Shown in pieces: positions 6,328 through 49,417 of a DNA stretch of 64,000 bases. The notes under the pieces are model-generated. The model saw only the letters and a program-made list of their open reading frames with translations. It did not search any database and had not been told where the DNA came from. The DNA is taken from positions 381,912-445,911 of the forward strand of contig CP060229.1 in NCBI GenBank assembly GCA_023898585.1. Reading direction: 5' to 3'. The DNA comes from Candidatus Nomurabacteria bacterium. Its GTDB lineage: Bacteria > Patescibacteriota > Minisyncoccia > Phycocordibacterales > UBA918. The position numbers and the translations under genes were made by a program. The first letter of the stretch is position 1; every line of letters starts with the position of its first letter.

Positions 6328-6376
6328 ACAATTGTTGCTACTATTGTCACGAAGCCACGGGGTTTCTTTCCTTTCC

Positions 6377-6397
6377 CCGCGCGCCTGCGGCGCGCGG
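6377..6397 (+). terminator. GC-rich hairpin (9-bp stem ccgcgcgcc/ggcgcgcgg, 3-nt loop) after the pilus cluster
   Basis: Perfect palindrome seen directly. Weak U-tract, so terminator function is only probable. Confidence 0.4.
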
Positions 6398-6533
6398 TTC
6401 TCCCGTCCTTTCGGAACGAGAAGTTTCTGAATCTGCCCCTCGATTTATTTAGATGGAACCAAATTGAGGAAGAATTGAGAGGGTTGTTGGATGTAAAGGA
6501 GGTTGTAAACACCCAATTTGCTATACTTAACTA

Positions 6534-7529
6534 ATGCAATCAAACGAAAAACTAGGTTCTGATGAACATCATAAACCAAATGTTATTTTTCGTAATGAAC
6601 CAAAGTTATCTGAGCACGAGATTGACAACGATTTGAATAAAATGCGAACGGAGTTCATGACGTATATCCAGGACTTTGTAACAGAGCACGATTTATTCAA
6701 GAATGAAACAGAGGTAGGCATTGAATTTGCTCAAAAAGGAGTATCTTCTGTAATTGCCATCATTGACACGCCTGCAGGCAAGTGGGTATTAAAAATACCC
6801 CGAAACAAAAGACATACCGTTGGAGAGGGTGAATTTTTTCAGGTGTGGGAGAAAGCTGGGGTTACTGTTCCACAAGTAATTGAAACTGGTGAATTAAATG
6901 ATTCGCCGTATACACTTATGGAATATATAGACGCCCAGACACTTGATACTTGCTACAGTCATGAGGAGCTTTTAGCTAAAGGTACATTCGTTGAGATGGG
7001 AGAAGCTCTTCGGTGTATGCATTCTGAATCTGCTGATGGTTACGGATTTGTTGTTGATGGTAAACCAGAATTTGAGACAGTAGAAGAATGGCTTGAGGGA
7101 GATGACATGAAAAGACGTTTTGATTACATAGATGAGCATAATTTACTTGAAGGAATTGAGGATGAGCTAGATAAAGCTCTGGAAGTAATTAAGCAACACT
7201 CAGAAAATTCTGATAGTACGTATTGCCACGATGATTTTGGAACAGCGAACATCTTCGCAACTGACCCAATAACAATTTTTGACCCTCAACCAAAATTCAA
7301 CAGTGGGTACTATGATTTAGGTAAAATCAATTTTATTAAAATTGCTATGAGTGGTTCGGACGAATCGTTCAAACAGTTACTCGATGGCTACTTTGATGAC
7401 AATGACTGCAACGATGCAGTACTCAATGCTTATACTTTTCTTGCTTTTTGCATGAAGTGTCCGTACTGGCATCGAACAGGAAGACAGGAGCAATTGGAGA
7501 CTGCGAAGAAATACTTTAGAAATTGTTGA
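6534..7529 (+). CDS. phosphotransferase-family kinase (APH/choline-kinase-like)
   Basis: CHDDFGTANIF (Brenner H-x-D...N motif) and a D-x-G-K/DLG segment typical of aminoglycoside/choline kinase fold. Confidence 0.55.
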   Translation: MQSNEKLGSDEHHKPNVIFRNEPKLSEHEIDNDLNKMRTEFMTYIQDFVTEHDLFKNETEVGIEFAQKGVSSVIAIIDTPAGKWVLKIPRNKRHTVGEGEFFQVWEKAGVTVPQVIETGELNDSPYTLMEYIDAQTLDTCYSHEELLAKGTFVEMGEALRCMHSESADGYGFVVDGKPEFETVEEWLEGDDMKRRFDYIDEHNLLEGIEDELDKALEVIKQHSENSDSTYCHDDFGTANIFATDPITIFDPQPKFNSGYYDLGKINFIKIAMSGSDESFKQLLDGYFDDNDCNDAVLNAYTFLAFCMKCPYWHRTGRQEQLETAKKYFRNC

Positions 7530-34391: not shown

Positions 34392-34677
34392 GTTTCTATA
34401 ATATTTAAGGAAAAACTGAAAAAGGTGGATACACTTCTAAAGAAAGGTTTACTCATGCGGGATGAACGGTACAAAATAAATGAAAGGTTCAACCTATCTT
34501 TGCAGTAACCCGACAAATAGGGACAGGGACAATAGAATCTTAAATCACTTGGCATAATATTTTATACCCCGGCCACTAACACTGTATCCTTGATTGGAGG
34601 AGGAGACAGTTAGGCTGATGATCTCGAGTATACACTGCATGTAATAGGGAGTCCAAAGAACAATCAGAACACACTTT

Positions 34678-34754
34678 TACCTAGAGTATTGTCCCTGTCC
34701 CCATTTCCTTTACCTAGAGTATTGTCCCTGTCCCCATTTCCTGTCCCCATTTCC
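34678..34754. repeat. tandem repeat (2.4 copies of a 32/33-bp unit tacctagagtattgtccctgtccccatttcct)
   Basis: Units at 34678-34709 and 34711-34742 plus the partial gtccccatttcc. An inverted copy of the core (gggacagggacaa) lies at ~34518-34531. Confidence 0.8.
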
Positions 34755-36992: not shown

Positions 36993-37108
36993 TATTTTGT
37001 ACGAGAGGATAGTTCTAAATTCCCATTAGTGTCCATTTGGCTAGAAATGAAATGATTAGGAATTACAAAGCTATTTGGTTTCAATTACCGTTTGGGCACT
37101 TACTGTCC

Positions 37109-37177
37109 ATGGGGTGGAACCAGTTTGAGGAAATTTGTTTGGAGTGGTTGGAGGAGGCGAGGGAGGTGCTTGTATAA
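37109..37177 (+). CDS. candidate conserved small ORF (22 aa, MGWNQFEEICLEWLEEAREVLV); a paralogous copy ends at 38769
   Basis: Two copies differ mostly by synonymous or conservative codon changes, but both lack a clear SD. A cis-element explanation is equally possible. Confidence 0.25.
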   Translation: MGWNQFEEICLEWLEEAREVLV

Positions 37178-37181
37178 AAAA

Positions 37182-37212
37182 CCGCGTCCTTTGCCATAAG
37201 CTAGGGACGCGG
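37182..37212 (-). terminator. hairpin ccgcgtcc/ggacgcgg plus U6 on minus strand, directly after the 449-aa gene
   Basis: 8-bp GC stem, 15-nt loop. The minus-strand RNA is followed by UUUUUU. Confidence 0.55.
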
Positions 37213-37223
37213 CATTTACCTCA

Positions 37224-38573
37224 TTATTCGACGTTAAGGAGTTGCATCATTCGATCATAGTCGTTTTCCAGCACTTTTTCCTTGATGGGTCGGTGCGTTG
37301 GGTCAACTTCCACGCGATAACCTTGTACGAGACATGTCTCTCGACTTCCGACACCGTTGGTAAAGTCGGGTTCGCCCACCAGTGCATACGCATTTGCACT
37401 CTTGGGGAGTACAGCCTCCACTTCCTTGCGATCGTAGCGAAAGATCGGAACAGGGTAGTTCGAATCGGTATAGAATCGTACCGCTTCTCCCACCTGTTGC
37501 ATGGATTTCACCAGGAACTCTGGTTCGTACGTATCAGCCCGAGCACCTTTCTTTGGCACTTGTGTGAACCAGGTCTCATCCGGCAGTTGCATGAGCACCA
37601 TGAGGCCTCCTGGCGCTTGGTCGAGTCCGGTTGGCTCCATGAGTTCACGCCAGTGCTTTAGTAGCAACTTGCGTGCATCAGGACCTTTGCGGATTTCACC
37701 AGCATCACCCTCACGGACGCCAAACATGCGTGTTCCATCACCCCATCCATGGGGTCCAATGTCACACGACCAGGTTGGGAGACGACCATAGTCATTGCCC
37801 TGGACTTGGGAAATCGCGCCGATACTCAACAGGTGGGCAAAGGCAAAACCTTCTTCCACCTCCTGGTATACGTAGCTACAGCTTGCATCACCAGGTTGGA
37901 TGATGTATGGGTTCATCGGACCACTGCTCGGATCATACGCGTGATGCTTCTTGTAGAACTCGATTGCCAGCCTTGCGTGCTCGGTCAAATATTCAGAAGC
38001 CCGAGGACCGAGTCGTGCACGCAGCACCGGATCGACAAATGCTTCCACAGCCGAAAGGATTGAGAGGAAAGGGTACTGGTACCGACGAAGGTATGTCTCC
38101 AGTTCCACCACCTCGACCGGACCATAGTGTCCACTTTCGAGTTTGTGGAACTCGTCGATCGTGATGCGACCACCTTCTCGTCCGCGAGTCTTGTCGCTTG
38201 TTTGCCACTTGTAGGCGTCGACAACACCACGTTCGGTTGCCATCGGGCCAACGCCGTGGGCAACGAGTAGGATCTTGATGCCACCTTTGCTCATCCCTAC
38301 GTACTCGGCAGACATCGTGGTGAAGTACTGATCCCACGGGGTCGGGTTGGAAGGGTCGTAGCCATTCAGGTGTTTCGGCGGAGTTGCAAGCCGTGCATCG
38401 ACCACGTCAAGCATGGTGCCGACATGACCTTTGTCTCCAGCGAATCTGGAAGCTTGCCGGAAGGATGGCACGAAGCCATCCATGTGGAAGAAGCTCATAG
38501 CTTCACCAGTTGCGGTTTTTTCAGACATTAGTAGTCTCCTTGTTTCCGTTTTTGGATTTGAAGGAACGGACAA
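37224..38573 (-). CDS. hypothetical protein (449 aa) in GC-rich island
   Basis: Long ORF in a locally GC-rich stretch, with many spurious antisense ORFs on the + strand. No family recognised by eye. Confidence 0.6.
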   Translation of the reverse strand: MSVPSNPKTETRRLLMSEKTATGEAMSFFHMDGFVPSFRQASRFAGDKGHVGTMLDVVDARLATPPKHLNGYDPSNPTPWDQYFTTMSAEYVGMSKGGIKILLVAHGVGPMATERGVVDAYKWQTSDKTRGREGGRITIDEFHKLESGHYGPVEVVELETYLRRYQYPFLSILSAVEAFVDPVLRARLGPRASEYLTEHARLAIEFYKKHHAYDPSSGPMNPYIIQPGDASCSYVYQEVEEGFAFAHLLSIGAISQVQGNDYGRLPTWSCDIGPHGWGDGTRMFGVREGDAGEIRKGPDARKLLLKHWRELMEPTGLDQAPGGLMVLMQLPDETWFTQVPKKGARADTYEPEFLVKSMQQVGEAVRFYTDSNYPVPIFRYDRKEVEAVLPKSANAYALVGEPDFTNGVGSRETCLVQGYRVEVDPTHRPIKEKVLENDYDRMMQLLNVE

Positions 38574-38773
38574 TGTGTCCGGCGAAACAATACAATATAA
38601 AGATTTATTTGTCTACATTAAAAAAGTCCATAGTGGAACTAAAAAGTCATTATTTTATTCTGTTTCCCAGATATCTAGGACAGTAGGGCACGTACTGTCT
38701 CTCGGGTGGAACCAGTTTGAGGAATTGTGTATTGAATGGCTTGAAGAAGCGAGAGTAATTTTTGTATGAAAAA

Positions 38774-38826
38774 GCCACCCTTCCGCCGAAACGAAAGGGT
38801 CGCTTTCAGTTTCGTGGTTGGGTGGC
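38774..38826 (-). terminator. hairpin gccaccc...gggtggc plus U5 on minus strand, directly after the 116-aa gene
   Basis: 7-bp outer stem with structured loop. The minus-strand RNA is followed by UUUUU. Confidence 0.4.
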
Positions 38827-38827
38827 G

Positions 38828-39178
38828 TCAGTCAGGGCGGCGGCCTTCTTTCCAGCCACCGCATATGGACTTGTAACCAGGCGGGAACGCCTCGTTGAAC
38901 GTGTGACCACCGTGTTCTTCCAGGGCGCGTTGGACTTCCCAGCACACTTCGTCCCGCTGTTCTTCGGTCATGTTGATGAACTGCATGGTGTAGACTCGCG
39001 CCATTGCGTGAATGTCGGGCGACGTTTCGATACTGGGGTCAGTCAGGAAGTTGACGGTAGTGGTGTCGAGTCGCTCGAAGCTCCACCGTTTCTGAAATGC
39101 TGTCTGTACAGCGTGGCGAATGGCTTTCATCTGCGGTACTTCGTCCGCAGTGAAACCGGTCACATCGACAATAGGCAT
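38828..39178 (-). CDS. hypothetical protein (116 aa), possibly tautomerase-superfamily-like (Met-Pro start)
   Basis: MPIVDVTGF... with Pro at position 2, ~116 aa. GC-rich codon usage. Family assignment is weak. Confidence 0.3.
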   Translation of the reverse strand: MPIVDVTGFTADEVPQMKAIRHAVQTAFQKRWSFERLDTTTVNFLTDPSIETSPDIHAMARVYTMQFINMTEEQRDEVCWEVQRALEEHGGHTFNEAFPPGYKSICGGWKEGRRPD

Positions 39179-39189
39179 CGTGTCCTCCT

Positions 39190-39723
39190 TCAGGCCAGGA
39201 AGTTCCGGCCGTCGAGCTTGTCATTGCTGTTTTCGAATGCGTAACGACCGAGCGCCTTGAGTGAGTCAGCGGTCATCCCGGAGATGAGCTGGTCAATACA
39301 CGGTTTTTCGCCCGAGAAGCCGACCACCAGTCCGTGTCGTTTGACGCCGCCCCAGTAGGGCGTGTCGCCCGAGAACAGCAGGTGAGCGTTCGAATCGGTC
39401 TGCCCGTCATCGTTGCGTCCCTGCCAGAGCTGGAGCGCCTTGCAACGGGCGATGTCGTCGAACGGGTACTCCCAGTTATCCTTTTCACCCACGCTCTCTT
39501 CATAGAGCAAGTGCGGGTAAATCGGGTAGTTGGGCCAGTCGGGGTAGTCTTCCGATCGCACGTCGTCCATCGACGGAACGAGGATGACGAGATGACCTTG
39601 GCGACGCTTCATGGCGTCGGCGTAAGGGCCTTCTTCGGCGAATAGTGTGACCGAAAACACCTGCTTGGCCACCTGGGCGGCCAGTTGCGGGGTGAGGTAC
39701 TTGGGGGTGAGCAATTGGCTCAT
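39190..39723 (-). CDS. GlcG/DUF336-family protein
   Basis: GGVKRHGLVVGFSGEKPCIDQLISG resembles the DUF336 core motif. The likely start is the Met at 39723 (the ORF-track frame extends to 39816). Confidence 0.5.
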   Translation of the reverse strand: MSQLLTPKYLTPQLAAQVAKQVFSVTLFAEEGPYADAMKRRQGHLVILVPSMDDVRSEDYPDWPNYPIYPHLLYEESVGEKDNWEYPFDDIARCKALQLWQGRNDDGQTDSNAHLLFSGDTPYWGGVKRHGLVVGFSGEKPCIDQLISGMTADSLKALGRYAFENSNDKLDGRNFLA

Positions 39724-39879
39724 GTCGTTTCTCCACTTGGTTGCGAATTGTGATTGCCGAAATGGCGGGAACTTGTAGATCGTAGTGATCCATAAGCTGG
39801 CAAAAAAGTATAGCAAAAGTCAATTTTTGTAAATACTAACTCGACATTAGTGAAACTAGAATCTTCTGTCTGACCTGGG

Positions 39880-41634
39880 CTATGCAGAGATTTTTTCCTC
39901 TATGATGCTCTTCAAATCAGCAACGTCGTCGCTAACGTATGATTCTGGTAGGTGAGAAGCAGATTCAATTTCGACTTTTGCTTCCTCGTACTTTTTATTG
40001 TCTAAGTAGTGTCGAGCTTTTTCGTAATGCCATATTTGAGAGGCAATATTTTTATTTTTAGTTGATGCAAAGCGTTCTATGGCTTTTGTGTAGTACGCAT
40101 CTCCTTTGTTATTTTTGCCAGTTCGGAAACAAAGCAGTCCTTTTGTTGCTGAAAGTGATGGTGGCAGCTCATCGTCTTTATACTTTTTGAGGATATCCTC
40201 AGCTTTTTTAAAATGTCCGCCTAAAATGTAAGCGTGAGCTAGGTTGTTTTCAATGTAAGGCATGTCAAAACCAAGCTCTAGTGCACCTTCAAGTAGTTTT
40301 ATTGACGCTTCGTAATCCTTGTCTAGTGAAGAAAGTATAAAACTATAGTCAGGGTAAACTTCACGGATGCGAGGTTCTATTTCTAGAGATTTCTCGAAAT
40401 AAGTTTTTGCATTGTCGTATTGCTTCATCCTCCCTAGGTATGCTCCTCTTAGGTAAAAACCAAAAGCATCCTCTGGGTGAATGCGTAATATGAAGTCGGC
40501 TGTTTCTTTTAGTTTATCTAAGTCGTCTCTGTCAACGGCTGATCTCCCTATGTTGTAAGATGATTTTAGGTGATCAATTTTGATATTAAGATTGCGCTTG
40601 CCGGAGATGTGTTTTTTGAATAAAGAGGCAGCTTTTTCGAAACAAGCGTCACCTTGAGTGTTCAGACCAACTGATTTATAGCAAACTCCAAGATTGTTGT
40701 ATAAAAGATCGTTGTTTTTCTCTTCTTGTATCTTCTTTTGGTACCAGGGTATCGCTTCTTCGAAGTTTCTTAGCTCCATTAGTAGCCAACCAATCTTATG
40801 CTCCCAAACGTGGTCGAGTATCAACTGACTATGTTTTGCCTTTACGAGTGTTTCTAAGGCTTCAGCGTATTTTTTTCCGTTCACGTACAGATAGGCCAGG
40901 TTTTGATAACTGTGTATATATCTAGGATCTATTTCAATAACACTCTTGAAAAGACCTTCCGCATCTCCAGGGTTGCCAGACCGTAGATGGGCCACCCCAA
41001 GGTTATTTATCGCGTGTATATAACGGTTATTTATAGATCTTGATCTTTCAAAATACGTTACTGAACCTTCTATGTCTTTCTTAAGGTTTAGGAGTATAAA
41101 CCCATGAGTGTTGATAACTTCGTAGTCTGCTGGATCTTTTTGTTCAGCTTCATTTAAAACGCTGATGGCTTCCTCTACATCACGATTTTTTTCATCTATT
41201 AAAGCTTTAAAAATGGCATACTTATGCAAAATATCTGGGCGACGATTGGTAACTTCTAGTACCTTCCTGAAAAATAGGTTTGCTTGGTCGATGTCCTTGT
41301 GTGATATGCATGCAAAGAGTATTTTTTCGTATGCCGGTAAATGGTCAGGTTTTAAATCTATCGCCATTAGGAAGTAGGTGATAGCACGTTTGTAATTACC
41401 TTTCATTAGGTACAGATCGCCAACCTGCATTAGAGTCTGTGGTGCCTCGCGTTCACTAAGTCTTTTCTTGGCGAACCTCATTTGCTCATTTATGAACTTA
41501 TGTTTAAACTTGTGTCCGAAAGAGTTGACGGGAGAAGCGTCTGTAGAGGAAATAGGAGTATGAGTTGGTCGTGATTTTGCAGCACCAATAACCGGTTCGA
41601 TGTAATCGTTGGTATTTTGGGTCTGAGTAATCAT
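39880..41634 (-). CDS. TPR-repeat protein (584 aa)
   Basis: Multiple 34-residue TPR-like repeats (W/LG/Y...A...F...A...P patterns). 4-bp overlap with the upstream kinase gene. Confidence 0.7.
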   Translation of the reverse strand: MITQTQNTNDYIEPVIGAAKSRPTHTPISSTDASPVNSFGHKFKHKFINEQMRFAKKRLSEREAPQTLMQVGDLYLMKGNYKRAITYFLMAIDLKPDHLPAYEKILFACISHKDIDQANLFFRKVLEVTNRRPDILHKYAIFKALIDEKNRDVEEAISVLNEAEQKDPADYEVINTHGFILLNLKKDIEGSVTYFERSRSINNRYIHAINNLGVAHLRSGNPGDAEGLFKSVIEIDPRYIHSYQNLAYLYVNGKKYAEALETLVKAKHSQLILDHVWEHKIGWLLMELRNFEEAIPWYQKKIQEEKNNDLLYNNLGVCYKSVGLNTQGDACFEKAASLFKKHISGKRNLNIKIDHLKSSYNIGRSAVDRDDLDKLKETADFILRIHPEDAFGFYLRGAYLGRMKQYDNAKTYFEKSLEIEPRIREVYPDYSFILSSLDKDYEASIKLLEGALELGFDMPYIENNLAHAYILGGHFKKAEDILKKYKDDELPPSLSATKGLLCFRTGKNNKGDAYYTKAIERFASTKNKNIASQIWHYEKARHYLDNKKYEEAKVEIESASHLPESYVSDDVADLKSIIEEKISA

Positions 41635-42608
41635 ATGTTGAGTTTGTCTAAATCTGCTTCCAGTTCCTCGATGCTATTGTATCTTCTGGAATGGTCGATA
41701 TCACAGAGCTTTTCAATGATTTTGTTAATCTCCTGGGTTAGTTGGTAATCTACCAGAGATACGTGTAAGTTTGAGTAGTCGAGATTTCTTCTTGTTTCAA
41801 GCCACTTGCTATAAAACTGTTCTCTTTCGGTATAGGTTTTTCCGTTCGTGCTAAACGAGTTTTGTTGCATGTAGGTACCAATATCTCCCACAAGTTGTGA
41901 GTAATGTATTATTGGTGTTCCGTTAAATAGGAAAGATAATAAAATACCGAGAGCATAGTGATCGGTCTTTTTAGAAAGACCGATATTAGTACCGTCTGTT
42001 ATCTCAAAGAAGAGTTCGGGAGGACGTACGTATCTATGACCTACGCAAGGACGATCAAGATAATCAAGAGGCTCAAGGTTGTGATCTTTTGCTCTTCCAA
42101 AATCACACAACTTAACCTGTTGTTCGTCACCGTCAAATACTAAAACATTGTTCCACCAGAGATCTCTGTGTACTACGTCCAGTTGGTGGGCATGCTTTAC
42201 ACCAGTACATATCTTTCTGAATGTAGAGATAAGTTCAGAAGGTGTCTGATTATAGTTTTCTTTTATATGGGCATCAAGATTGCCTTGAGCAAGCTCCATC
42301 AGATAGTAGAAAAATGGACTCTCTTCCTCGTTAACACTCAAAGGAAGTATTATTTGTTCGCAATGCAAAGGTGTGTGTAGTCTGTGGAGGATGGTATTTT
42401 CTTGTTTGAAGCGGTCAATCTCTTCTTTGGGAGCGCCGTCTCTGCAGACTTTTAGAGCAATCGGCGAACCGTATTCTTCATTTTTTACCTCGTAGACAAT
42501 ACCAAAATTGCCGCCACCCAGCTCTCTAATTACAGTATTTTCTCGAATCTTTTGCCCTGTCGTTAGCATGGTAGTCGTTACTATAGGCAACACCTTTTCC
42601 GTTGTCAA
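41631..42608 (-). CDS. Ser/Thr protein kinase (Hanks-type)
   Basis: G-loop LGGGNFGIVY, VAIK-like IALKV, catalytic loop HRDLWWNNVLV, DFG (DFGRAKD). Confidence 0.8.
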   Translation of the reverse strand: MTTEKVLPIVTTTMLTTGQKIRENTVIRELGGGNFGIVYEVKNEEYGSPIALKVCRDGAPKEEIDRFKQENTILHRLHTPLHCEQIILPLSVNEEESPFFYYLMELAQGNLDAHIKENYNQTPSELISTFRKICTGVKHAHQLDVVHRDLWWNNVLVFDGDEQQVKLCDFGRAKDHNLEPLDYLDRPCVGHRYVRPPELFFEITDGTNIGLSKKTDHYALGILLSFLFNGTPIIHYSQLVGDIGTYMQQNSFSTNGKTYTEREQFYSKWLETRRNLDYSNLHVSLVDYQLTQEINKIIEKLCDIDHSRRYNSIEELEADLDKLNI

Positions 42609-42662
42609 AGATGAGTATCGAGACTAGGTTACTATCGTTCGCTCATTTTACTGTCACACCTG

Positions 42663-43034
42663 TCACTTTTCAAAGATGGATGCTACTAGTCGATCAATTC
42701 TTTCTTGATCGATCTGTTTTGCGGGCAGTTCGATTGTTTGCCTAGGAATGTCCCAGCCGTAGTTACACCGTAAATTAAACATTGCCCCAGTAACAGCCCC
42801 GCCTCTAAATAGGTGTTCTTCAGCGAATGTCTCACAGCGCTGTTTTGCTGCCTCTATCGTGTCAAAAAATTCCTCTTTTCGTGAGTAATTCAACAATGTT
42901 TGTCGTGTGACTCCGAGAAAAAGAGATAGTCCGGATATTGTATACGGTCGATCTTGTTGATCGCATAGTTGAAAATAGCCGTCCACAGCGGTCTGTAGAG
43001 CTATTTGGTTGTTGAATTTAAGTGGCCTTGACAC
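42663..43034 (-). CDS. phage terminase small subunit-like protein (HTH DNA-packaging protein)
   Basis: Pattern YTISGLSLFLGVTRQTLLNY...EFFDTIEAAKQRCE...FNLRCNYGW resembles TerS-family N-terminal domains. Confidence 0.5.
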   Translation of the reverse strand: MSRPLKFNNQIALQTAVDGYFQLCDQQDRPYTISGLSLFLGVTRQTLLNYSRKEEFFDTIEAAKQRCETFAEEHLFRGGAVTGAMFNLRCNYGWDIPRQTIELPAKQIDQERIDRLVASIFEK

Positions 43035-43049
43035 CTATGTATTTTACCA

Positions 43050-43529
43050 TCAAATACAGGCTGGGCTGGAGTAATTTATTGTTTTGCAGACATACTCTAT
43101 GCCTGCCCTAAAAGCGTATTCGGTTGTTGAGTCCATAAAATCTTCGTTCAAGTCTAGAGCTTTTTCTAGCGCCTCGCTCTGAGCCGCCTGTTTGCCATGT
43201 ATGAATCCTGCGTTATAGCGTGCTTCTCCAAACTCAGATACTGACATGCTGCCTATGTTTATATCAGTACTAGGTTGATTTTCTTCTTCCGTTTCGTACA
43301 AGGACCAAGCGTCTTCATAACCATCTTCGTAACCCACCTCTATACCTGCATCGTAACCAGACGCATATCGTTCCTTCATCTGCGCTGAAATAAATAGCCA
43401 GACTACAATTAGTGCGATTATCGTCAATATGGATATGATTATCTTTTTCATGGTTACGTCTGTATACAAAAAGCCCACTGCTAAAAGGTAGGATGTGAGT
43501 CCACATGCCCAGTTTCCCAGACATGACAC
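43050..43529 (-). CDS. hypothetical membrane-anchored protein
   Basis: The likely start is the internal Met (MKKIIISILTIIALIVVWLF). Acidic ectodomain. Confidence 0.4.
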   Translation of the reverse strand: MSCLGNWACGLTSYLLAVGFLYTDVTMKKIIISILTIIALIVVWLFISAQMKERYASGYDAGIEVGYEDGYEDAWSLYETEEENQPSTDINIGSMSVSEFGEARYNAGFIHGKQAAQSEALEKALDLNEDFMDSTTEYAFRAGIEYVCKTINYSSPACI

Positions 43530-43673
43530 AGAACGTGACCCCGTTAACAGCGGGTTCTTTATCGTTCTGTGATTAACTTATTCGCACCATGCCGCGCCTC
43601 ACGGCAGCGGGTTAGGTGACTATATTGTCTTTTAATAGTATCAGAAATAAGGGTATGATACGAGGAAATGTAA

Positions 43674-44417
43674 ATGTATATGGATGCAAAAAGGGTAAAA
43701 ACAGTATGGAGATCAGTTGTTAAAAGGATTCCTGCCGAATATGTGACTGAAACTCGGGAAAGATTGAATATTCCACCAAAGGGGTTTTTGACCTTTAAGG
43801 ACCAAGAAAAGTGGTATCAAAACGCATTAAAAGAAGTTACTGCAATGAGTCGTGGTGCCTACAAAGGGAAAAGATTAACTGAGCGGCAACGAATCGTCTT
43901 AAACAAAGCATTGGAAAAGACAGATTATGGGATTTTGCAGCAAGCGATTTCTACCATCGTAGAAAAATTTCCAGTACTAAAAGGATATGAAGATGCCGTA
44001 CGGGAAGGTTTGTTGGGCTTAATGAACGAAAAAAGTATCAATTCGGGCGATTACACTGGTTGTGAATTTGCGTATGTGACCAAAGATTCTGGAGATACAG
44101 ATTTATCTGAAGGTTTGTACATCAGGGTTTCCAGTCACACAACCAAGCAAGACATTGATGATTTTTTAACAAAGAAAAAAACTGCTTTTCAAAAGCTGAA
44201 AAAGCTTCTATATCCAGATGAGCCAATCCGTTATCAGGTTTCACCAGCAGCAGAGAGGAAAGAGATGACGAGAATTTTGCGCGACCATTCATTAGTGGAA
44301 CTTAATAAGTTGTGTAAAAAAGAGTGCGAGGAAAGGGGTGATTATGATCCCATATTGCCGACTCGAAAGGATATGGCTATTGAAAGACTTCTTAAATTTT
44401 GGGGATACAAGAAGTGA
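43674..44417 (+). CDS. hypothetical protein (247 aa), divergently transcribed
   Basis: ORF with plausible start. No domain recognised. Confidence 0.45.
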   Translation: MYMDAKRVKTVWRSVVKRIPAEYVTETRERLNIPPKGFLTFKDQEKWYQNALKEVTAMSRGAYKGKRLTERQRIVLNKALEKTDYGILQQAISTIVEKFPVLKGYEDAVREGLLGLMNEKSINSGDYTGCEFAYVTKDSGDTDLSEGLYIRVSSHTTKQDIDDFLTKKKTAFQKLKKLLYPDEPIRYQVSPAAERKEMTRILRDHSLVELNKLCKKECEERGDYDPILPTRKDMAIERLLKFWGYKK

Positions 44418-44504
44418 TCTAGTGCAGTTAAATGACCGTTTGTTAGTAAAAACTCAACTAGGGTTGGGTTTTTACTAACTCCTAATTCTTTTACGGGGAA
44501 TACT

Positions 44505-44744
44505 TTGGTCACTATGACTAATGTATATAAAACATCAGATTTAAATGAGGCGGTCGTACTTTTATGTTATGACCACAAACTAGAGTACATTGATAAAACA
44601 GAGCGGCGGGCACAATTTTGCTTTACGGAGCAATCTGATACCGCTGAAGTAATTAAGAATTATAGGCTACGTGAAATTCAGATAGAGCCACATTCCTTTT
44701 ACCAACACCAACGCGATCTAAAGGATCGTTTGTATAACGGCTAG
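44505..44744 (+). CDS. hypothetical small protein (79 aa)
   Basis: ORF immediately upstream of the primase gene. Confidence 0.4.
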   Translation: MVTMTNVYKTSDLNEAVVLLCYDHKLEYIDKTERRAQFCFTEQSDTAEVIKNYRLREIQIEPHSFYQHQRDLKDRLYNG

Positions 44745-44748
44745 GCTT

Positions 44749-47007
44749 ATGTCAGGTGTAAGTAAATTGAACAACGACAGTAGTCATTTGAATAAGTTAA
44801 AGGAAGCTGCGCTACAGTACGTAAAAGACGGCCACCCCATTGTACCTATGGGCCTCAATGGTGATACAGGGGACTATAAAAGGCCACTAGTAAGGTGGCG
44901 AGATGTAGACGGTCCGGCTCGGACAGAAAAAGCTGTAGAGAGTTTATTTTCCAAGTTTGGCAAACGAATTTTCGGAATCGCAACAATTGTTGAGCGGCAT
45001 ATCCTGGTCGATTTTGATACAGAGGATTCACACAAGTTATTTAGGCTACAACCAGCCCCAACCATTAAAACTGGCAAAGGTAGACACATGTGGTATGCCA
45101 CAACTTCTGTAGTCAAACAGAATGGGCCACTTGACTTGTCTGAACATGAAAAGAGGGACGGTAAAAAATATCAGGTAGAGATTTACACAGAAAAGCGGCT
45201 TGAAATTCTGCCACCCTCTCTACATCACTCTGGTGTGTTGTACGAATGGGAGCTGGACTATACAGATTTCTTAGATTTGTCACCTTTACCTGAAGATTTG
45301 GTCCAATTGTGTGGAATTAAAAAGGAGAAAGTTGGCCAGAAAAAAAGCGACATATTTCAAATCATCTATGAGGGTGAGCGACACAGCAAATTAAAAGAAG
45401 CTTGTTTTTACTTCTTTAATAAGCATAAAGGGAATGGAAAAAAGATAACCAAATCAGTTCTGGCCTGGAACATCGAATATTGTAATCCTCCAATAGATGA
45501 AGGTGAGGTTGGGAACATGGTCGATTGGACTATCAAAAACTTTGATGCACCTGACGGGAAGAAAGACAAAGAACCGAAACAAAGTCAGGCAGTAATTGAG
45601 TATATTGAAGAAAATAAAGCAATTACGCTATTCCACGACCAAGACAAGATTGGTTTTGCTCGCCTCAATTCACAAAAGGGAGTGAATATTCCAATTCACA
45701 GTCAAGAGTTTACTGAGTTTTTATCCCTACTCGCGTATCAATCTGACAAAAGTGTTTTAACGGATTATGTTTGTAAAGAGATTCAGTCAGTTTTACATGC
45801 CAAAGCATTGTATGAGTCTTCCCAGCACGCTCTACAACACCGAGTGTATCAGTCTGGTGAGTGTGAATTTTACTATGACCTCTGCAACGATGCTGGAGAA
45901 GCAGTAAAGATAACAAAAGACGGGTGGACTATTGAATCGGGAGAGAAAATACAGTTTCTTTTTAAGCGCGGTGCTGCAACAGAACAGCCGAGACCAGTTA
46001 AGGGTGGAAACCTAAGACAGTTTCTCGATTTTGTGAATCTCAAAGACGAAGATGAACAGATGTTGTTTTTGTGCACGCTTCCCGTGCGAATGATTCGAGA
46101 TATCGACCAGCCGATCGTTTACATCTACGGCCCAGCTGGAAGTGCAAAAACCACACTGCTTAAACTGACTAAAGACCTGCTTGACCCGTCTCAAGGTGGA
46201 ATTTCAATGCCGGTAAAAAAGCTTGAACACATCACGCCGCTTTTAAATCAGACGTGGGTGTTTGCTAATGACAACATATCTCATATTGGTGACGAGTTGT
46301 CTGACTTCTTTTGTGTAATGGCCACTGGAGCTGAAAGTGCTCGTCGCACCTTGTATAAAGACTCAGAAGTGACAGTGCATCGTGTTAAGAACCCTGCATA
46401 CATGACGGGCATCAACATTGAAGCTAGTAATAGTGACTCACTTAGCAGGTTGTTGATCTTTAAGACTGAAGCGTTGGGTAAGGGGAATCTCAAGAATAAA
46501 AATGATCTTTTTAGAAAATATCAGCAGATGAAACCACAGCTGCTGGGCTCTATTTTTGACACATTAGTAGCAGCTTCGAATGTAAAGCAGGACTTACCAC
46601 AACAGACCGAGTTCCGTATGACTGAATATGCGCTATGGGGCGCTGCATGTGCCGAGGTGCTCGGGTATGGGGCTGAAAATTTTGAAAAGGCTTTACAGAG
46701 AGCAATGAGAGCTCGGGCTTATGACGCCATCCAGTCTTCTAGCGCAGGTCGAGCGCTTTTGAAACACCTCGAAAGCAACCTTTCTTTTGAAGGGACAATG
46801 ACTCAGCTTCTAAAGACACTAAAGGATCTGTATTTTGAGGATGATTTTCATGAAAGATGGGGTGAGACTGTAGCAAACAATCCTGAATCACTAAGCAAGA
46901 AACTGCGTGAACTTGAAAATAGTCTATCAGAGATAGGCATAACCATAGATTTTAAACGAACAGCCACAGAACGATTGATTGTCATAAGTCGAGTAGAGGG
47001 GTTTTAG
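44749..47007 (+). CDS. primase-helicase replication protein (Prim-Pol N-terminal domain plus D5/P4-type P-loop NTPase)
   Basis: Prim-Pol DxD (HILVDFDTED). Walker A GPAGSAKTT in the C-terminal half. 752 aa. Confidence 0.7.
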   Translation: MSGVSKLNNDSSHLNKLKEAALQYVKDGHPIVPMGLNGDTGDYKRPLVRWRDVDGPARTEKAVESLFSKFGKRIFGIATIVERHILVDFDTEDSHKLFRLQPAPTIKTGKGRHMWYATTSVVKQNGPLDLSEHEKRDGKKYQVEIYTEKRLEILPPSLHHSGVLYEWELDYTDFLDLSPLPEDLVQLCGIKKEKVGQKKSDIFQIIYEGERHSKLKEACFYFFNKHKGNGKKITKSVLAWNIEYCNPPIDEGEVGNMVDWTIKNFDAPDGKKDKEPKQSQAVIEYIEENKAITLFHDQDKIGFARLNSQKGVNIPIHSQEFTEFLSLLAYQSDKSVLTDYVCKEIQSVLHAKALYESSQHALQHRVYQSGECEFYYDLCNDAGEAVKITKDGWTIESGEKIQFLFKRGAATEQPRPVKGGNLRQFLDFVNLKDEDEQMLFLCTLPVRMIRDIDQPIVYIYGPAGSAKTTLLKLTKDLLDPSQGGISMPVKKLEHITPLLNQTWVFANDNISHIGDELSDFFCVMATGAESARRTLYKDSEVTVHRVKNPAYMTGINIEASNSDSLSRLLIFKTEALGKGNLKNKNDLFRKYQQMKPQLLGSIFDTLVAASNVKQDLPQQTEFRMTEYALWGAACAEVLGYGAENFEKALQRAMRARAYDAIQSSSAGRALLKHLESNLSFEGTMTQLLKTLKDLYFEDDFHERWGETVANNPESLSKKLRELENSLSEIGITIDFKRTATERLIVISRVEGF

Positions 47008-47019
47008 CATTTTGGCTTA

Positions 47020-47181
47020 TGACCAGCCTCGAAACATTTAAAGAGATTCTTATAGAATGCGGTGTTTCCGTGCCAGAAGAGCAGATCGAAGTGTTTCGTG
47101 ATTTGATTGATGCGCAAGCCGATTTGATTTTAGACTCATGGCTCAAAAGTAAACATGACGGTTGTGACAGTGTAAAATAAA
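47020..47181 (+). CDS. small hypothetical ORF (53 aa) between primase and recombinase
   Basis: Unlisted ORF MTSLETFKEILIECGVSVPEEQIEVFRDLIDAQADLILDSWLKSKHDGCDSVK. Fills the intergenic gap. Confidence 0.3.
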
Positions 47182-47184
47182 CGT

Positions 47185-48933
47185 ATGCAGAAAGAACGGC
47201 CCAGGACATGTCTAGCTAGTGCACGAATCAGTAGCCAACAACAAATGGCTGGTGAGAGTCTTGATGATCAGGTGCGAGTTCTCAAAACTACCGCTGAACA
47301 TAAAGGACTTAAGATACTACCTGACGGTGAGGTAGCCGTTGAGATATTCACTGGTACAAAACGTCGTCCTGTGTACGAACAGCACATTCAGTACATCAAA
47401 GACAATCCGGGCAAGGTTGGTTACTATCTAATTCGATACATTGATCGCTTTACTCGTGGTGGTGCCTCTGTCTATCACGACATGAAAAAAGAACTTTCCG
47501 ATTTGGGAGTGATGCTCATTGATACAAACGGAATCATCCAAGAATCACGGAACATGCCGGAATTGGCTGAGATGGGTTTTGAATATGAGTGGAGTGTCGA
47601 ATCACCAAGTGACATGACTGAGGTGATGATGGCAACAACAGCCAAACAGGAACGCGACACAATTCTAAAAAGAACAATTCCTAAGCAGATTGCTTATACT
47701 CAAAAAGGATTTCAGATAGGTCGCCCTGACGATGGAATGATGAACTATCGTACTCAAGTGGGGACACAGATACGATTTGTGCAGGTCCCCGATCCAGAGC
47801 GCGCTCACTTCATAAGAAAAATATTTGAGCTACGGGCAGAGAATAAACACTCTGATCAAGAGATACTTCATATTGTGAATGAAGACATGGGGTTTCGTAC
47901 TAAAAAATTCCATCGCTGGAATAAAACCCACACAGAGATTATCGGTGAAGGAGGTGGCCACAAGCTTCATATCAAGCAGCTACAGCGCATTTATCAGCGT
48001 TTAGCGTATGCAGGTGTACTTTGCGAGAAATGGACGCACCACAAGCCAATTAAGGCGCAATGGGACGGCTTAGTATCAATTGAGCTATGGAACAAAGCAA
48101 ACCGTGGCAAGATTTTCATTAAGGAGTACGACAATGACCTGTTGGAGATTCTGTACGACTATAAAACCGAGAAGCCCGTCTATCAACGACTTCGATACAA
48201 CCCAGAGTATCCTTTCAAGTGTGTAAGTTGTCCGCAGTGCAACAAGCCACTTAAAGGCAGTGCACCACGCGGGCGCGGCGGAACATACCCACGCTATCAC
48301 TGTGAACGTGGCCACACTTCATTTACGGTCAGTCGGCAACAAATGAATCAGACTGTCGAAGCATTTTTGGACAGTGTCGATTATGACGATGATTATCTGA
48401 AAGTTTTAGAAGAAGTGCTGGTCCGTAAACTACGACAGCGACAGAAAGATATTGTGCAGGAATCAGAGAAGCTAAACGAACGAGTCACTTTATTAAAGAG
48501 CCAACAGAAGCAGGTTCTAGGTACTTTAATCTCAACTGAGAGTCCGACGGTCAAAGTCATGCTTGAGAAAGAATTGGAGACCATTGTTGCTGACATCAAA
48601 AAGGCTGAATCAATTCGTTTCTCTGTCGATCTCACTGAAGGCAATATTACTGAGTTGGTGAGCTACGCACGAAAGATAGTGGAATCACCGAAAAAAGCCT
48701 TGATAGATAAAGACAATCCACTCCGACAGAAGCAGTTATTCAAGCTTTTCTTCGAGGACCTACCAACCTATACAGAATTGGATAGTGGAACCGCTAAAAA
48801 ACGCTTTCTTTTCAATAGGAAATGTATTGTCGAGACCCCTGAAAACAGGGTGTCTAGACAGAAGGGGCGACTACTGGGAATCGAACCCAGATTTCCGGTA
48901 CCACAAACCGGCGTAATAGCCGTTATACAATAG
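47185..48933 (+). CDS. large serine recombinase (resolvase catalytic domain, recombinase domain, zinc ribbon, coiled coil)
   Basis: Catalytic ARISSQQQ (cf. YARVS..Q) and IDRFTRG. Zn-ribbon CVSCPQC...HCERGH. The last ~23 codons overlap tRNA-His on the opposite strand. Confidence 0.75.
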   Translation: MQKERPRTCLASARISSQQQMAGESLDDQVRVLKTTAEHKGLKILPDGEVAVEIFTGTKRRPVYEQHIQYIKDNPGKVGYYLIRYIDRFTRGGASVYHDMKKELSDLGVMLIDTNGIIQESRNMPELAEMGFEYEWSVESPSDMTEVMMATTAKQERDTILKRTIPKQIAYTQKGFQIGRPDDGMMNYRTQVGTQIRFVQVPDPERAHFIRKIFELRAENKHSDQEILHIVNEDMGFRTKKFHRWNKTHTEIIGEGGGHKLHIKQLQRIYQRLAYAGVLCEKWTHHKPIKAQWDGLVSIELWNKANRGKIFIKEYDNDLLEILYDYKTEKPVYQRLRYNPEYPFKCVSCPQCNKPLKGSAPRGRGGTYPRYHCERGHTSFTVSRQQMNQTVEAFLDSVDYDDDYLKVLEEVLVRKLRQRQKDIVQESEKLNERVTLLKSQQKQVLGTLISTESPTVKVMLEKELETIVADIKKAESIRFSVDLTEGNITELVSYARKIVESPKKALIDKDNPLRQKQLFKLFFEDLPTYTELDSGTAKKRFLFNRKCIVETPENRVSRQKGRLLGIEPRFPVPQTGVIAVIQ

Positions 48934-48938
48934 TCGCC
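48866..48938 (-). tRNA. tRNA-His (anticodon GTG) with encoded G-1
   Basis: Manual fold. Extra 5' G pairs with discriminator C. Anticodon loop tTGTGgt. T arm GGGTTCGATTCCC. Confidence 0.75.
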
Positions 48939-49417
48939 ATAAATCGTTCTTTTTCTTTCGAGTAATGATGAACGAGATGGTGGCAATTGTGGCACAACCA
49001 AGCCAAATTTTCAATGCTATTGTTGGAGTGGTTCTCATCAATGTGGTGAACTGCTAATACTCTAGTATCTCCAGAGTTGCATAGTTTACATTTTTTAGGA
49101 GTTTTACCTCGTGAAAGTAAGCTCCGATACGAATGATTACCCGACTTCCAATTAGGGTGCTTTTCTTGAGAGAATTCCCGATTCCTCCACTTTGTTTGGC
49201 AAGACTTGCCACAAAAGAATTTTCCACTTTTTGATCCTTTGAGAGCTTTGGGTGATTTGTATATTTCTTTGTTGCAATAAGAACAGTTTACATATTTACC
49301 AGTTCGAGATGCTTCATGTTGACAGGAGGAAGAACAGTACTTGCCCCAACCTCTCTTTAACCAAGAGGGCTTAGCGTAAAAATCAACCTTACACTTTTCG
49401 CATTGTTTTATAGGCAT
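48923..49417 (-). CDS. HNH endonuclease with N-terminal zinc-finger repeats
   Basis: C-terminal LAVHHIDENHSNNSIENLAWLCHNCH HNH motif. Multiple CxxC pairs. The 3' end overlaps the tRNA-His 5' end by 16 nt. Confidence 0.65.
   Translation of the reverse strand: MPIKQCEKCKVDFYAKPSWLKRGWGKYCSSSCQHEASRTGKYVNCSYCNKEIYKSPKALKGSKSGKFFCGKSCQTKWRNREFSQEKHPNWKSGNHSYRSLLSRGKTPKKCKLCNSGDTRVLAVHHIDENHSNNSIENLAWLCHNCHHLVHHYSKEKERFMATIV

Follow-up and report, generated by a model that had tools for sequence, protein, structure and literature searches.

The closest described counterparts of the gene pair reported here are a handful of defense kinases and one computational defense candidate. Stk2 of Staphylococcus epidermidis acts through abortive infection (Depardieu et al. 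2016); it is a single protein with no TPR partner, its trigger and targets are known, and stk2 is located in an SCCmec cassette, a carrier that large serine recombinases move. PD-T4-6 (Vassallo et al. 2022) is a single-gene system, and mad6 belongs to MADS, a multigene, methylation-associated system. PDC-M71, made up of the kinase PDC-M71A and a second protein, PDC-M71B, is a PADLOC candidate (Payne et al. 2024, bioRxiv 10.1101/2024.01.29.577857), one of 145 listed candidates and itself put forward computationally through guilt-by-embedding, from its embedding in, or adjacency to, BREX, DISARM, or type I restriction-modification (RM) loci. In the literature we found no experimental report on PDC-M71 and no validated defense system that combines a Hanks-type kinase with a TPR protein. 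Phage satellites and related P4- and PICI-type elements are known to bear defense hotspots (Rousset et al. 2022, PMC9122126).

The Patescibacteria (CPR) account for a large share of bacterial diversity, and the number of defense systems recognized in them is very small; functional screens are beginning to reveal CPR-restricted defense genes (PMC12366544, PMC12259885). Here we analyzed a 64,000-nt stretch of a “Ca. Nomurabacteria” genome, referred to as the window, in which a gene for a Hanks-type protein kinase (41631..42569, minus strand, 312 aa) is followed by one for a TPR protein (39880..41634, minus strand, 584 aa in the open reading frame list). With a probability that we put at roughly 45%, this pair is a TPR-sensor/kinase-effector module of the abortive-infection type, carried as cargo by a satellite-like element. 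With just two genes and a length of about 2.7 kb, it is a concrete candidate for testing in a surrogate host.

The kinase and its TPR partner

The kinase matched the Pfam family Pkinase (1.9e-34), and an alignment of 10 kinase sequences held the Hanks motif set invariant: the Gly-rich loop (G31/G33), the VAIK Lys (K53), the alpha-C Glu (E70), the HRD Asp (H147-R148-D149), the catalytic Asn (N154), the DFG motif (D169-F170-G171), an APE-like motif (P196-P197-E198), the subdomain IX Asp (D216), and the subdomain XI Arg (R309). The catalytic loop is atypical. It reads HRDLWWNN in the window protein and so departs from the HRDLKxxN pattern of Ser/Thr kinases, in which a Lys stands two positions past the HRD Asp; across 22 sequences of the family, this position is occupied by Trp (13 sequences) or His (9 sequences) and never by Lys. 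Because the catalytic-loop Lys is replaced in every one of the 22, kinase activity and substrate class are uncertain, and the Trp/His replacement is an oddity that lends itself to biochemical testing. The nearest solved structures were Staphylococcus aureus PknB/Stk1 and StkP, with HRDIKPQN aligned to HRDlwwnN. A literature search for the motif HRDLHWGN found no paper. A Haspin-like catalytic loop was considered and not relied on; matches to Pfam Haspin_kinase at this loop were weak, local, and below threshold.

The partner exceeded the cut-offs of many Pfam TPR families (TPR_2, 1.7e-33). AlphaFold2 modeled it with a pLDDT of 89 as an all-alpha protein in which about 15 hairpins (some 30 paired helices) span residues 38-583 behind a disordered N terminus of 37 aa, which is the architecture of a TPR protein: tandem 34-residue helix-turn-helix repeats wound into a superhelix. 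As modeled, it consists of a TPR solenoid and nothing else, with no enzymatic domain, which leaves the kinase as the sole candidate effector. A Foldseek search with the model returned generic TPR superhelices alone (OGT-TPR, Ctr9, and Ski3 at the top) and gave no functional lead.

Relationship to PDC-M71 and other defense kinases

The initial annotation had likened the pair to kinase-based anti-phage or abortive-infection modules and had proposed a PADLOC-style scan as a check. That scan returned a paired match, the kinase to PDC-M71A (PDLC04780; 2.8e-24, profile positions 118-317 of 352, or about 57%) and the partner specifically to PDC-M71B (residues 431-579; 9.4e-28, profile positions 355-506 of 515, or about 30%). 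Three other members of the partner family gave the same C-terminal match to PDC-M71B (1e-15 to 1e-19). Profile alignment with hhalign agreed, at 98.2% for the kinase against PDC-M71A and 96.7% for the partner against true PDC-M71B, the latter over 172 columns at the C terminus only. An authentic PDC-M71 from Chitinophaga sp. S165 (L028) matched its models almost end to end (A, 1.2e-123 over 6-349; B, 8.6e-160 over 1-507), whereas the partner in the window did not match PDLC04781/04782 over most of their length.

Both systems consist of adjacent, co-directional genes in which the kinase comes first and an all-alpha, TPR-like protein second; the C-terminal 150 to 170 aa of the partner are homologous, as are the kinase C-lobe and C-terminal extension; and the Chitinophaga example also lies in a mobile or defense-type region, together with E1-like, dcm, and RadC genes. 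The differences are also substantial. Over its N-terminal 420 aa or so, the partner shows no sequence relationship to PDC-M71B; PDC-M71A keeps the canonical catalytic-loop Lys (HQDIKCSN), replaced by Trp or His in the CPR family; and in Chitinophaga an HTH gene precedes the pair, whose genes do not overlap. Judged from these profile matches, the pair appears to be a relative of the candidate PDC-M71, with partial homology. If so, PDC-M71 gains a second, divergent branch, and comparison of the two branches suggests that the shared C-terminal module binds the kinase while the divergent TPR array does the sensing.

The kinase also matched the PADLOC models of the defense kinases mad6, PD-T4-6, MkoA, and Stk2, and the first two scored higher than PDC-M71A. 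The mad6 (5.6e-37) and PD-T4-6 (PDLC04047; 1.7e-28, positions 13-209 of 327) models were the best scoring of all, but the likeness does not extend beyond the generic kinase core. The window kinase has an obligatory partner gene, unlike PD-T4-6, and the other genes of MADS are absent from the window. The match to Stk2 (8.7e-18) covered positions 124-338 of 500 and thus fell short of the full, single-protein model; the two share a homologous kinase domain and a carrier of the kind moved by serine recombinases.

Distribution and gene neighborhoods

In all 19 distinct loci for which upstream sequence was available, drawn from at least five CPR lineages, the kinase gene immediately precedes the TPR gene. 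As the initial annotation had noted, the two genes overlap by 4 nt; the kinase stop and TPR start share ATGA, and this overlap couples translation of the TPR gene to that of the kinase gene. The ATGA arrangement is present in 8 of the 12 loci examined; in the remaining four, the spacing varies between an overlap of 1 nt and a gap of 11 nt. Distances among the kinases co-vary with those among the partners (r = 0.72; Mantel p = 0.0002).

The flanks of the pair are nonsyntenic, with a different context in every lineage. A conserved syntenic chromosomal site was sought among lineages and not found, and linkage to integrases, which the initial annotation had put forward for survey, was borne out: no more than 10 kb separates the pair from a gene for a large serine recombinase in 9 of 19 loci (the window, L002, L015, L017, L033, L050, L054, L055, and L058). 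Two of these, L015 and L033, repeat the layout of the window, with recombinase, primase-helicase, and kinase-TPR genes, and in L015 a homologous helicase half adjoins the pair. In two others of the nine (L055 and L058), compact islands of about 6 kb have the pair as their main cargo. RM systems adjoin it in 2 of 19 loci. In L001 a complete type III RM system stands 3 nt upstream and is co-oriented with the pair; in L002 the neighbors are a Dcm/REase-like pair, a type I RM system, and PemK. A search of plasmids with the TPR partner gave no match. These comparisons point to a self-contained, horizontally mobile two-gene cassette that appears to be restricted to Patescibacteria.

Such a distribution bears on what the pair does. 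Ordinary cellular signaling, in which a housekeeping Hanks kinase and a TPR adaptor would have come to lie in a variable region by chance, draws on the housekeeping nature of the PknB/StkP-type kinases with the nearest solved structures and on 3 of the 19 loci, where the flanks are solely housekeeping genes and no mobile gene is nearby. It would, however, have to accommodate an extremely patchy occurrence (5 of 185,579 species representatives, all five of them CPR), the absence of synteny between lineages, and frequent linkage to recombinase or RM genes; moreover, domain searches of the window found neither a PASTA or other sensor domain nor a partner phosphatase nearby. We consider this explanation highly improbable.

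The same neighborhoods could be read in terms of addiction, with the kinase as a growth-arresting toxin and the TPR protein as its neutralizer, so that the pair protects serine-recombinase islands and satellite-like elements from being lost and phage sensing is not its primary role. The tight two-gene layout with its ATGA overlap resembles that of a toxin-antitoxin operon, the recombinase is present at about half the loci, a backbone of recombinase and primase-helicase is common to the window, L015, and L033, the pair is the chief cargo of the small islands, and the DefensePredictor paper reads a HipA-like kinase with its partner as toxin-antitoxin-like. A partner of 584 aa and some 15 TPRs is far larger than an antitoxin requires, though, the toxin would be the upstream gene, which is the rarer order, and the pair also occurs with no mobile gene nearby and directly behind an RM operon. 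A role of this kind, which is in any case compatible with defense, seems to us unlikely.

An anti-defense or host-takeover role is a further alternative. T7 protein kinase broadly counters bacterial defenses by pervasive phosphorylation (PMC13645617), and the present kinase, which mobile elements carry at about half the loci, might in the same way disarm host immunity or redirect host machinery. No relative of the pair was found among 50,697 phage records and 2.9 million viral contigs, which sets it apart from T7 kinase, a phage gene; in L001 it keeps company with a host-type RM system, and its dedicated TPR partner and link to PDC-M71B point to a sensor-coupled system. Host takeover is a very unlikely function.

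The carrier element

In agreement with the initial annotation, the pair lies inside an element, between a recombinase/tRNA-His end (47185-48937) and a left flank near 37100. The element measures about 11.8 kb (approximately 37100 to 48863) and has two divergent arms. Its plus-strand arm (43674..47007) encodes a 247-aa protein without assignment, a DUF5659 protein (44505-44744; Pfam DUF5659, 2.3e-09), and a 752-aa replication protein with PrimPol and ATPase/helicase-like parts (44749-47007; Prim-Pol, 3.5e-09; phrog_1156 DNA primase, 7.4e-13). At the right end is the gene for the large serine recombinase (47185..48933, plus strand; Resolvase, 7.8e-08; Recombinase, 4.9e-05; phrog_95 integrase, 1.2e-24), whose last 70 nt or so overlap tRNA-His(GTG) on the opposite strand (48864..48937, minus strand; ARAGORN; Rfam tRNA, 58 bits). 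This tRNA gene probably marks the site of integration at the right border.

The minus-strand arm begins with a gene for a small protein (43050..43529) with a single transmembrane-like segment near its N terminus, which matched no family in Pfam, PADLOC, or PHROG. It continues with a homologue of phage small terminases, TerS (42663..43034, 123 aa; Pfam GP3_package, 4.4e-20; PHROG 606, phrog_606 “terminase small subunit,” 1.8e-22), which shares 39 to 42% identity with small terminases annotated in real phages, and then with the kinase and TPR genes. Downstream of the TPR gene are three cargo genes of 208, 116, and 449 aa with a high GC content (37224..39816, minus strand; GC 0.51-0.60), which are not conserved with the pair. 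No RM genes were found in the element by Pfam and PADLOC searches. An 88-nt repeat is also present in the window; as a DGR TR/VR pair it was rejected, its mismatches falling at all four bases and the window containing no reverse transcriptase.

The borders are no more than suggested by contig breaks at 37101/37105 and 48864: contig L038 begins exactly at 48864, and L012 spans 37105-48893. They are approximate, because the break at 48864 may reflect tRNA sequence shared between species. No att-type direct repeats were found at the junctions, as expected for a serine recombinase. A search for an empty site by way of an identical MscL gene found none, each contig either carrying the element or ending near it. 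Apparent variants lacking TerS or the recombinase (L008-L012) proved to be gene-calling artefacts, the DNA being 100% identical.

Judged from its gene content, the element is possibly a satellite-like integrative element at tRNA-His. It combines an integrase, a PrimPol-ATPase, and a TerS homologue within the 10- to 15-kb size range of satellites, and Pfam and PHROG searches matched no capsid, tail, or lysis gene, with five open reading frames left without assignment. Like P4 and PICI satellites, it is small, has a primase-type replication protein and defense-like cargo, and shows no recognizable structural or lysis genes. Unlike them, it has a large serine recombinase in place of a tyrosine integrase and resides in a CPR bacterium. 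It may be an example of a phage-satellite-like element in the CPR.

The initial annotation had described TerS, kinase, and TPR genes as a minus-strand operon. The three open reading frames, their domains, and their common direction are real, but at the 11 further loci tested no TerS homologue stands by the pair, and the three-gene unit was dropped; the TerS homologue belongs to the carrier element and lies outside the conserved pair.

Another alternative is that the pair regulates the element itself: the TPR protein would sense a signal from a helper phage or the host, and the kinase would set off excision, replication, or packaging by phosphorylating factors of the element or the host. The pair occupies the arm divergent from the replication and recombinase genes in the window, L015, and L033, and in the window it follows TerS with no terminator between. 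The prophage kinase-kinase-phosphatase (KKP) module controls virion production and also defense (PMC11341870); KKP and T7 kinase are mobile-element kinases that reprogram infection outcomes, as the present kinase might, but they are phage or prophage genes, whereas our pair has no relative in the phage and viral collections searched and has a dedicated TPR partner. Against a regulatory role, some loci have the pair but lack recombinase, primase, and TerS, in another it lies behind a type III RM system, TerS is linked to it nowhere else, and the backbone primases vary between elements (PrimPol, D5_N, and DnaG-type). Since the backbone genes differ, the pair is suggested to be cargo and not core. 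We regard element regulation as decidedly unlikely.

A possible abortive-infection module

The preferred reading is an abortive-infection-type module. Gene structure, domain identities, pair conservation, mobility, and neighbors are observed; activity of the kinase, the choice of sensor, the identity of any targets, and a defense phenotype are inferred. The TPR solenoid, with about 15 repeats, would be the sensor or regulator; its C-terminal module, the sole part shared with PDC-M71B, would hold the kinase, and the long N-terminal array would bind a phage or foreign-element protein. Ligand binding would free or activate the kinase, which would then phosphorylate host and/or phage proteins and stall the infected cell, as with Stk2. 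TerS would serve the packaging-hijack lifestyle of the element and not the kinase system.

For the likeness to anti-phage kinases drawn by the initial annotation, the paired PADLOC match, the recombinase and RM linkage, and the lack of synteny speak in favor; TerS falls outside the module, and the link to PDC-M71 is partial, amounting to about 30% of the B profile plus a kinase C-lobe match. Linkage to serine recombinases and primases fits element maintenance or regulation equally well, and the three loci flanked by housekeeping genes alone also weigh against defense.

A bolder version is somewhat doubtful: that the pair is a CPR-specific immune, or immune/addiction, system, the signature cargo of small serine-recombinase/primase elements, some of them satellite-like with TerS, in which a kinase with a Lys-less (Trp/His) loop is switched by the TPR protein. 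If true, no kinase immunity borne by an element would have been described in Patescibacteria before, and kinase-based defense would gain a branch with a distinct mechanism.

Start and probable promoter of the kinase gene

The longest open reading frame of the kinase (325 aa) extends to TTG 42608, which the initial annotation took as the start, 54 bp past the TerS stop. The arithmetic is right, but the start is not: in all nine homologues aligned, the N terminus falls at Met14 of the longest frame, encoded by ATG 42569, whereas TTG 42608 opens TTGACA, the -35 hexamer of a putative near-consensus promoter. Because the gene starts at ATG 42569, the gap between TerS and the kinase is really about 93 nt. 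Inspection of its sequence found no terminator-like site, and since the genes are co-directional, read-through from TerS into the kinase gene is possible. The promoter-like site, TTGACA-17 nt-TATAGT (42580..42608, minus strand), agrees with the sigma-70 consensus at 11 of 12 positions and ends 10 nt before ATG 42569. It is likely an internal promoter, so the pair probably has a promoter of its own, and its position predicts a very short 5' UTR or a leaderless transcript. Hexamers resembling the -10 element also occur 6 to 15 nt upstream of the kinase start in L003, L016, L032, and L033.

Gene Structure and Conservation of the Kinase-TPR Pair

The initial annotation described a minus-strand operon of three co-directional genes, and ORF calls and Pfam searches recovered all three with the domains claimed for them: a 584-aa TPR protein encoded at positions 39880 to 41634 (TPR_2, 1.7e-33), a kinase whose longest ORF, at 41631 to 42608, encodes 325 aa (Pkinase, 1.9e-34), and a 123-aa protein encoded at 42663 to 43034 (GP3_package, 4.4e-20). 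The 123-aa protein also matched phrog_606 (1.8e-22) and was 39 to 42% identical to the annotated small terminases (TerS) of Pseudoalteromonas phage H6/1 and Clostridium perfringens phages; judged by sequence, it is a genuine small-terminase homolog. The overlap reported between the kinase and TPR genes was present as well: the tetranucleotide ATGA contains both the stop codon of the kinase gene and the start codon of the TPR gene.

The kinase start, previously placed at 42608, proved to be wrong. In all nine homologous kinases, the start corresponds to Met14 of the window protein, the ATG at 42569, which leaves approximately 93 nt between the TerS and kinase genes. The TTG at 42608 supplies the first base of a TTGACA-17 nt-TATAGT site (42608 to 42580) that agrees with the sigma-70 consensus at 11 of 12 positions and ends 10 nt before this ATG. 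The spacer probably houses a promoter belonging to the pair itself, and the promoter-like site would predict a very short or leaderless transcript. Hexamers resembling the -10 element, which are consensus matches only, lie 6 to 15 nt before the kinase start in four other loci (L003, L016, L032, and L033). No terminator-like site was seen between TerS and the kinase, so transcription could also read through from upstream.

Word-indexed searches retrieved 16 full-length TPR relatives (27 to 47% identity) and 10 kinase relatives; in an exhaustive HMMER scan, approximately 65 to 70 of the best 150 representatives were single-stretch, full-length TPR matches of 570 to 600 aa. Among 185,579 species representatives, a full-length TPR relative was found in five, all members of the Patescibacteria (CPR): two Paceibacterota and one each from Doudnabacteria, Gracilibacteria, and Saccharimonadia. 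A homologous kinase lay directly upstream of the TPR gene in all 19 distinct loci that had upstream sequence. The ATGA overlap was present in 8 of the 12 loci examined; in the other four, the junction varied between a 1-nt overlap and an 11-nt gap. Pairwise distances among kinases and among TPR proteins were correlated (r = 0.72; Mantel p = 0.0002), a relationship to which shared phylogeny contributes. None of the other loci tested had homologs of the window TerS or of the high-GC genes beside the pair. Kinase and TPR partner alone make up the conserved unit, and the membership of TerS in its operon was not borne out.

Genomic Context of the Pair

The flanks of the pair were non-syntenic among loci, and the conserved syntenic chromosomal locus that the initial annotation had set against a mobile module was not found. 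A large serine recombinase was encoded within 10 kb of the pair in 9 of 19 loci (the window, L002, L015, L017, L033, L050, L054, L055, and L058), consistent with the link to integrases that the initial annotation had suggested surveying, and L031 carried a recombinase fragment. Loci L015 and L033 share the layout of the window, in which a recombinase is followed by a primase/helicase, small genes, and a divergent arm with the kinase-TPR pair at its end. The two loci carry primases of different types (DnaG zinc-ribbon plus helicase, and D5_N). At L055 and L058, compact islands of approximately 6 to 8 kb, holding the pair, a bPH_2 protein, and a recombinase, are set amid housekeeping genes. At L001, a complete type III restriction-modification system (Mod, 4.5e-155; Res, 2.1e-83) ends 3 nt before the pair, and at L002 the pair has Dcm/REase-like genes, themselves a pair, on one side and a type I restriction-modification system with PemK on the other. 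Flanks composed of housekeeping genes only were seen in three loci. No relatives turned up in 50,697 phage records, in 2.9 million viral contigs, or, with the C-terminal domain as the query, in 72,556 plasmids. The pair behaves as a horizontally mobile accessory cassette.

Three explanations compete with the reading proposed below. That the pair is a toxin-antitoxin-like addiction module stabilizing the islands is unlikely: its two genes are coupled and recombinase islands carry it as their main cargo, but the partner is very large and the pair is also found without mobile genes. A role as regulator of the life cycle of its own element, to which its place on the arm that diverges from the replication arm might point, is decidedly unlikely, since the pair occurs without any element genes. 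It is highly improbable that the kinase acts in anti-defense or host takeover, as in T7; mobile elements carry the pair in about half of the loci, but it is absent from phage and viral collections.

The small bPH_2 protein lies between the pair and the recombinase in two unrelated islands (L055, 5238 to 5633; L058, 5196 to 5579) and may be a further component or an accessory of the recombination-directionality type.

Relationship to PDC-M71

The PADLOC-style scan suggested in the initial annotation matched both genes to defense models. The window kinase matched several (mad6, 5.6e-37; PD-T4-6, 1.7e-28; MkoA; PDC-M71A, 2.8e-24; and Stk2, 8.7e-18), and the TPR protein matched essentially only PDC-M71B (9.4e-28; residues 431 to 579 against positions 355 to 506 of the 515 in the profile). 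The same C-terminal match was present in three further family members tested. PDC-M71 is among 145 untested "guilt-by-embedding" candidates (Payne et al. 2024; cassette CAS_00219, 31 instances), and our literature search found no paper naming it.

A true PDC-M71 system is present in Chitinophaga sp. S165 (L028), where an HTH gene is joined by genes for a kinase of 359 aa (A, 1.2e-123) and a partner of 506 aa (B, 8.6e-160), with E1-like, dcm, and RadC genes as neighbors. In profile comparisons, homology of the CPR partner to this PDC-M71B was limited to the last ~170 columns (96.7%; E, 3.5e-10), and that of the CPR kinase to its PDC-M71A was limited to the C-lobe and C-terminal extension (98.2%). 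The architecture and the C-terminal module are common to both systems, whereas the TPR array differs. Because homology is confined to these two places, the CPR family is best described, on these profiles, as a distant variant of PDC-M71 and not a plain member. Confined to the CPR, the pair represents a new variant of a kind that is known only as an untested candidate.

At 4898 to 7095 of the Chitinophaga locus, an E1/ThiF-like protein (PADLOC E1-E2 models, 1e-09) is accompanied by a 227-aa protein whose halves repeat in tandem, which suggests a defense neighbor of the ubiquitin-like conjugation type.

Protein Features and Proposed Mechanism

Alignment with homologs showed that the kinase retains the Gly-loop, Lys53, Glu70, HRD, Asn154, DFG, PPE, Asp216, and Arg309. 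It lacks the catalytic-loop lysine (compare HRDIKPQN in PknB), its own loop reading HRDLWWNN (residues 147 to 154 of the 325-aa ORF). Of 22 family sequences, 13 have Trp at the lysine position, 9 have His, and none has Lys. The true PDC-M71A of Chitinophaga differs from the CPR family in keeping the lysine (HQDIKCSN). In about half of the 22 sequences a Lys or Arg occurs two positions after the Trp/His (e.g., HRDLWWKN). The Pfam Haspin_kinase model gave weak, local, subthreshold matches at the catalytic loop in 4 of 10 members. The nearest solved relatives are Staphylococcus aureus PknB/Stk1 and StkP; that these are housekeeping enzymes might favor an ordinary signaling pair, an explanation to which we give hardly any credence in view of the extremely patchy, non-syntenic distribution.

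The TPR partner was confidently predicted (pLDDT, 89; pTM, 0.73) to form an uninterrupted alpha-solenoid of ~15 TPR hairpins (residues 38 to 583) preceded by a disordered 37-residue tail, and Foldseek matched the model to generic TPR superhelices only (OGT-TPR, Ctr9, and Ski3). Since the partner has no catalytic domain, the kinase is the sole candidate effector.

Gene structure, domain identity, coupling of the two genes, mobility, and neighbors are demonstrated. We tentatively read the pair as a TPR sensor and kinase effector of the abortive-infection type, with a probability of about 0.45. The C-terminal module common with PDC-M71B would dock the kinase, with an interface expected at TPR residues ~426 to 584, and the divergent N-terminal TPR array would bind a protein of the invading phage or element. 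Recognition would switch the kinase on, and phosphorylation of host or phage proteins would arrest the infected cell, by analogy with Stk2, the Staphylococcus epidermidis kinase that acts by abortive infection and whose gene is carried by a cassette that large serine recombinases mobilize. The defense reading made initially gains partial support from the PADLOC matches, the mobile context, and the lack of a syntenic locus, but TerS falls outside the pair.

Carrier Element and Flanking Sequences

The window TPR protein is identical to KC865_01375, a hypothetical protein of Candidatus Kaiserbacteria bacterium, which places the host among the CPR. The island also encodes a membrane protein (43050 to 43529), a 247-aa protein with no assigned function, a DUF5659 protein, a 752-aa PrimPol-ATPase (44749 to 47007), and a large serine recombinase (47185 to 48933) that abuts tRNA-His (48864 to 48937) on the opposite strand. 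An integrase, a primase/helicase, and TerS, with no structural or lysis genes, would amount to a phage-satellite-like make-up. To the left of the pair are three high-GC genes (37224 to 39816) and then host methyltransferases; beyond tRNA-His are an HNH protein, MscL, and ribonucleotide reductase.

More than 10 assemblies carry the island sequence at this site with 100% identity. One contig (L012) covers exactly 37105 to 48893, and another from the same sample (L038) begins at 48864, where tRNA-His has its 3' end; these limits suggest element borders near 37100 and 48863, approximately 11.8 kb apart. The contig break at tRNA-His could instead reflect sequence common to several species. No empty site was found among contigs with the identical MscL gene, nor any att repeat at the element junctions.

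The recombinase ORF runs ~70 nt into tRNA-His, so ~23 codons at its C-terminal end lie antisense to the tRNA, and excision would alter them; the NCBI annotation of an identical contig (GCA_020428745.1) lists no protein at 47185 to 48937. Just outside the element, between tRNA-His and MscL, a 164-aa HNH_3 endonuclease that also gave a TRASH-like zinc-finger match (48923 to 49417, minus strand) may be a separate homing-type insertion, and several assemblies break inside or beside its gene.

On the left, an 88-nt direct repeat (37094 to 37181 and 38686 to 38773, plus strand; 77% identity; spacing, 1592 nt) brackets a lectin-fold gene. A diversity-generating TR/VR pair was ruled out, since mismatches involve all four bases and the window encodes no reverse transcriptase. 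Both copies encode the same C-terminal peptide in the plus frame (...GH[LV]LS[ML]GWNQFEE[IL]C[LI]EWLEEAR...stop), copy 1 being the end of a 46-aa ORF (37037 to 37177, plus strand), and the repeat looks like a gene 3' end that was duplicated when a 1.6-kb cassette inserted. Within copy 1, at 37101 and 37105, lie the breaks of two independent assemblies. The flanking repeat is absent at the Moranbacteria homolog (L044).

The 434-aa high-GC gene that the repeat flanks (37224 to 38573) belongs to a large CPR-only family without a Pfam domain. Directly downstream of the TPR gene, where GC steps from 0.37 to 0.56 at ~39800, minus-strand ORFs of 116 and 208 aa (38828 to 39178 and 39190 to 39816; GC, 0.56 to 0.60) matched nothing in Pfam, PADLOC, or PHROGs, and homologs were not found beside the pair in other loci tested. 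Farther left (34515 to 34754), a perfect 33-nt tandem duplication (34676 to 34741) and its 20-nt inverted partner (34515 to 34534) are intergenic, between a DUF4395 gene and a methyltransferase gene.
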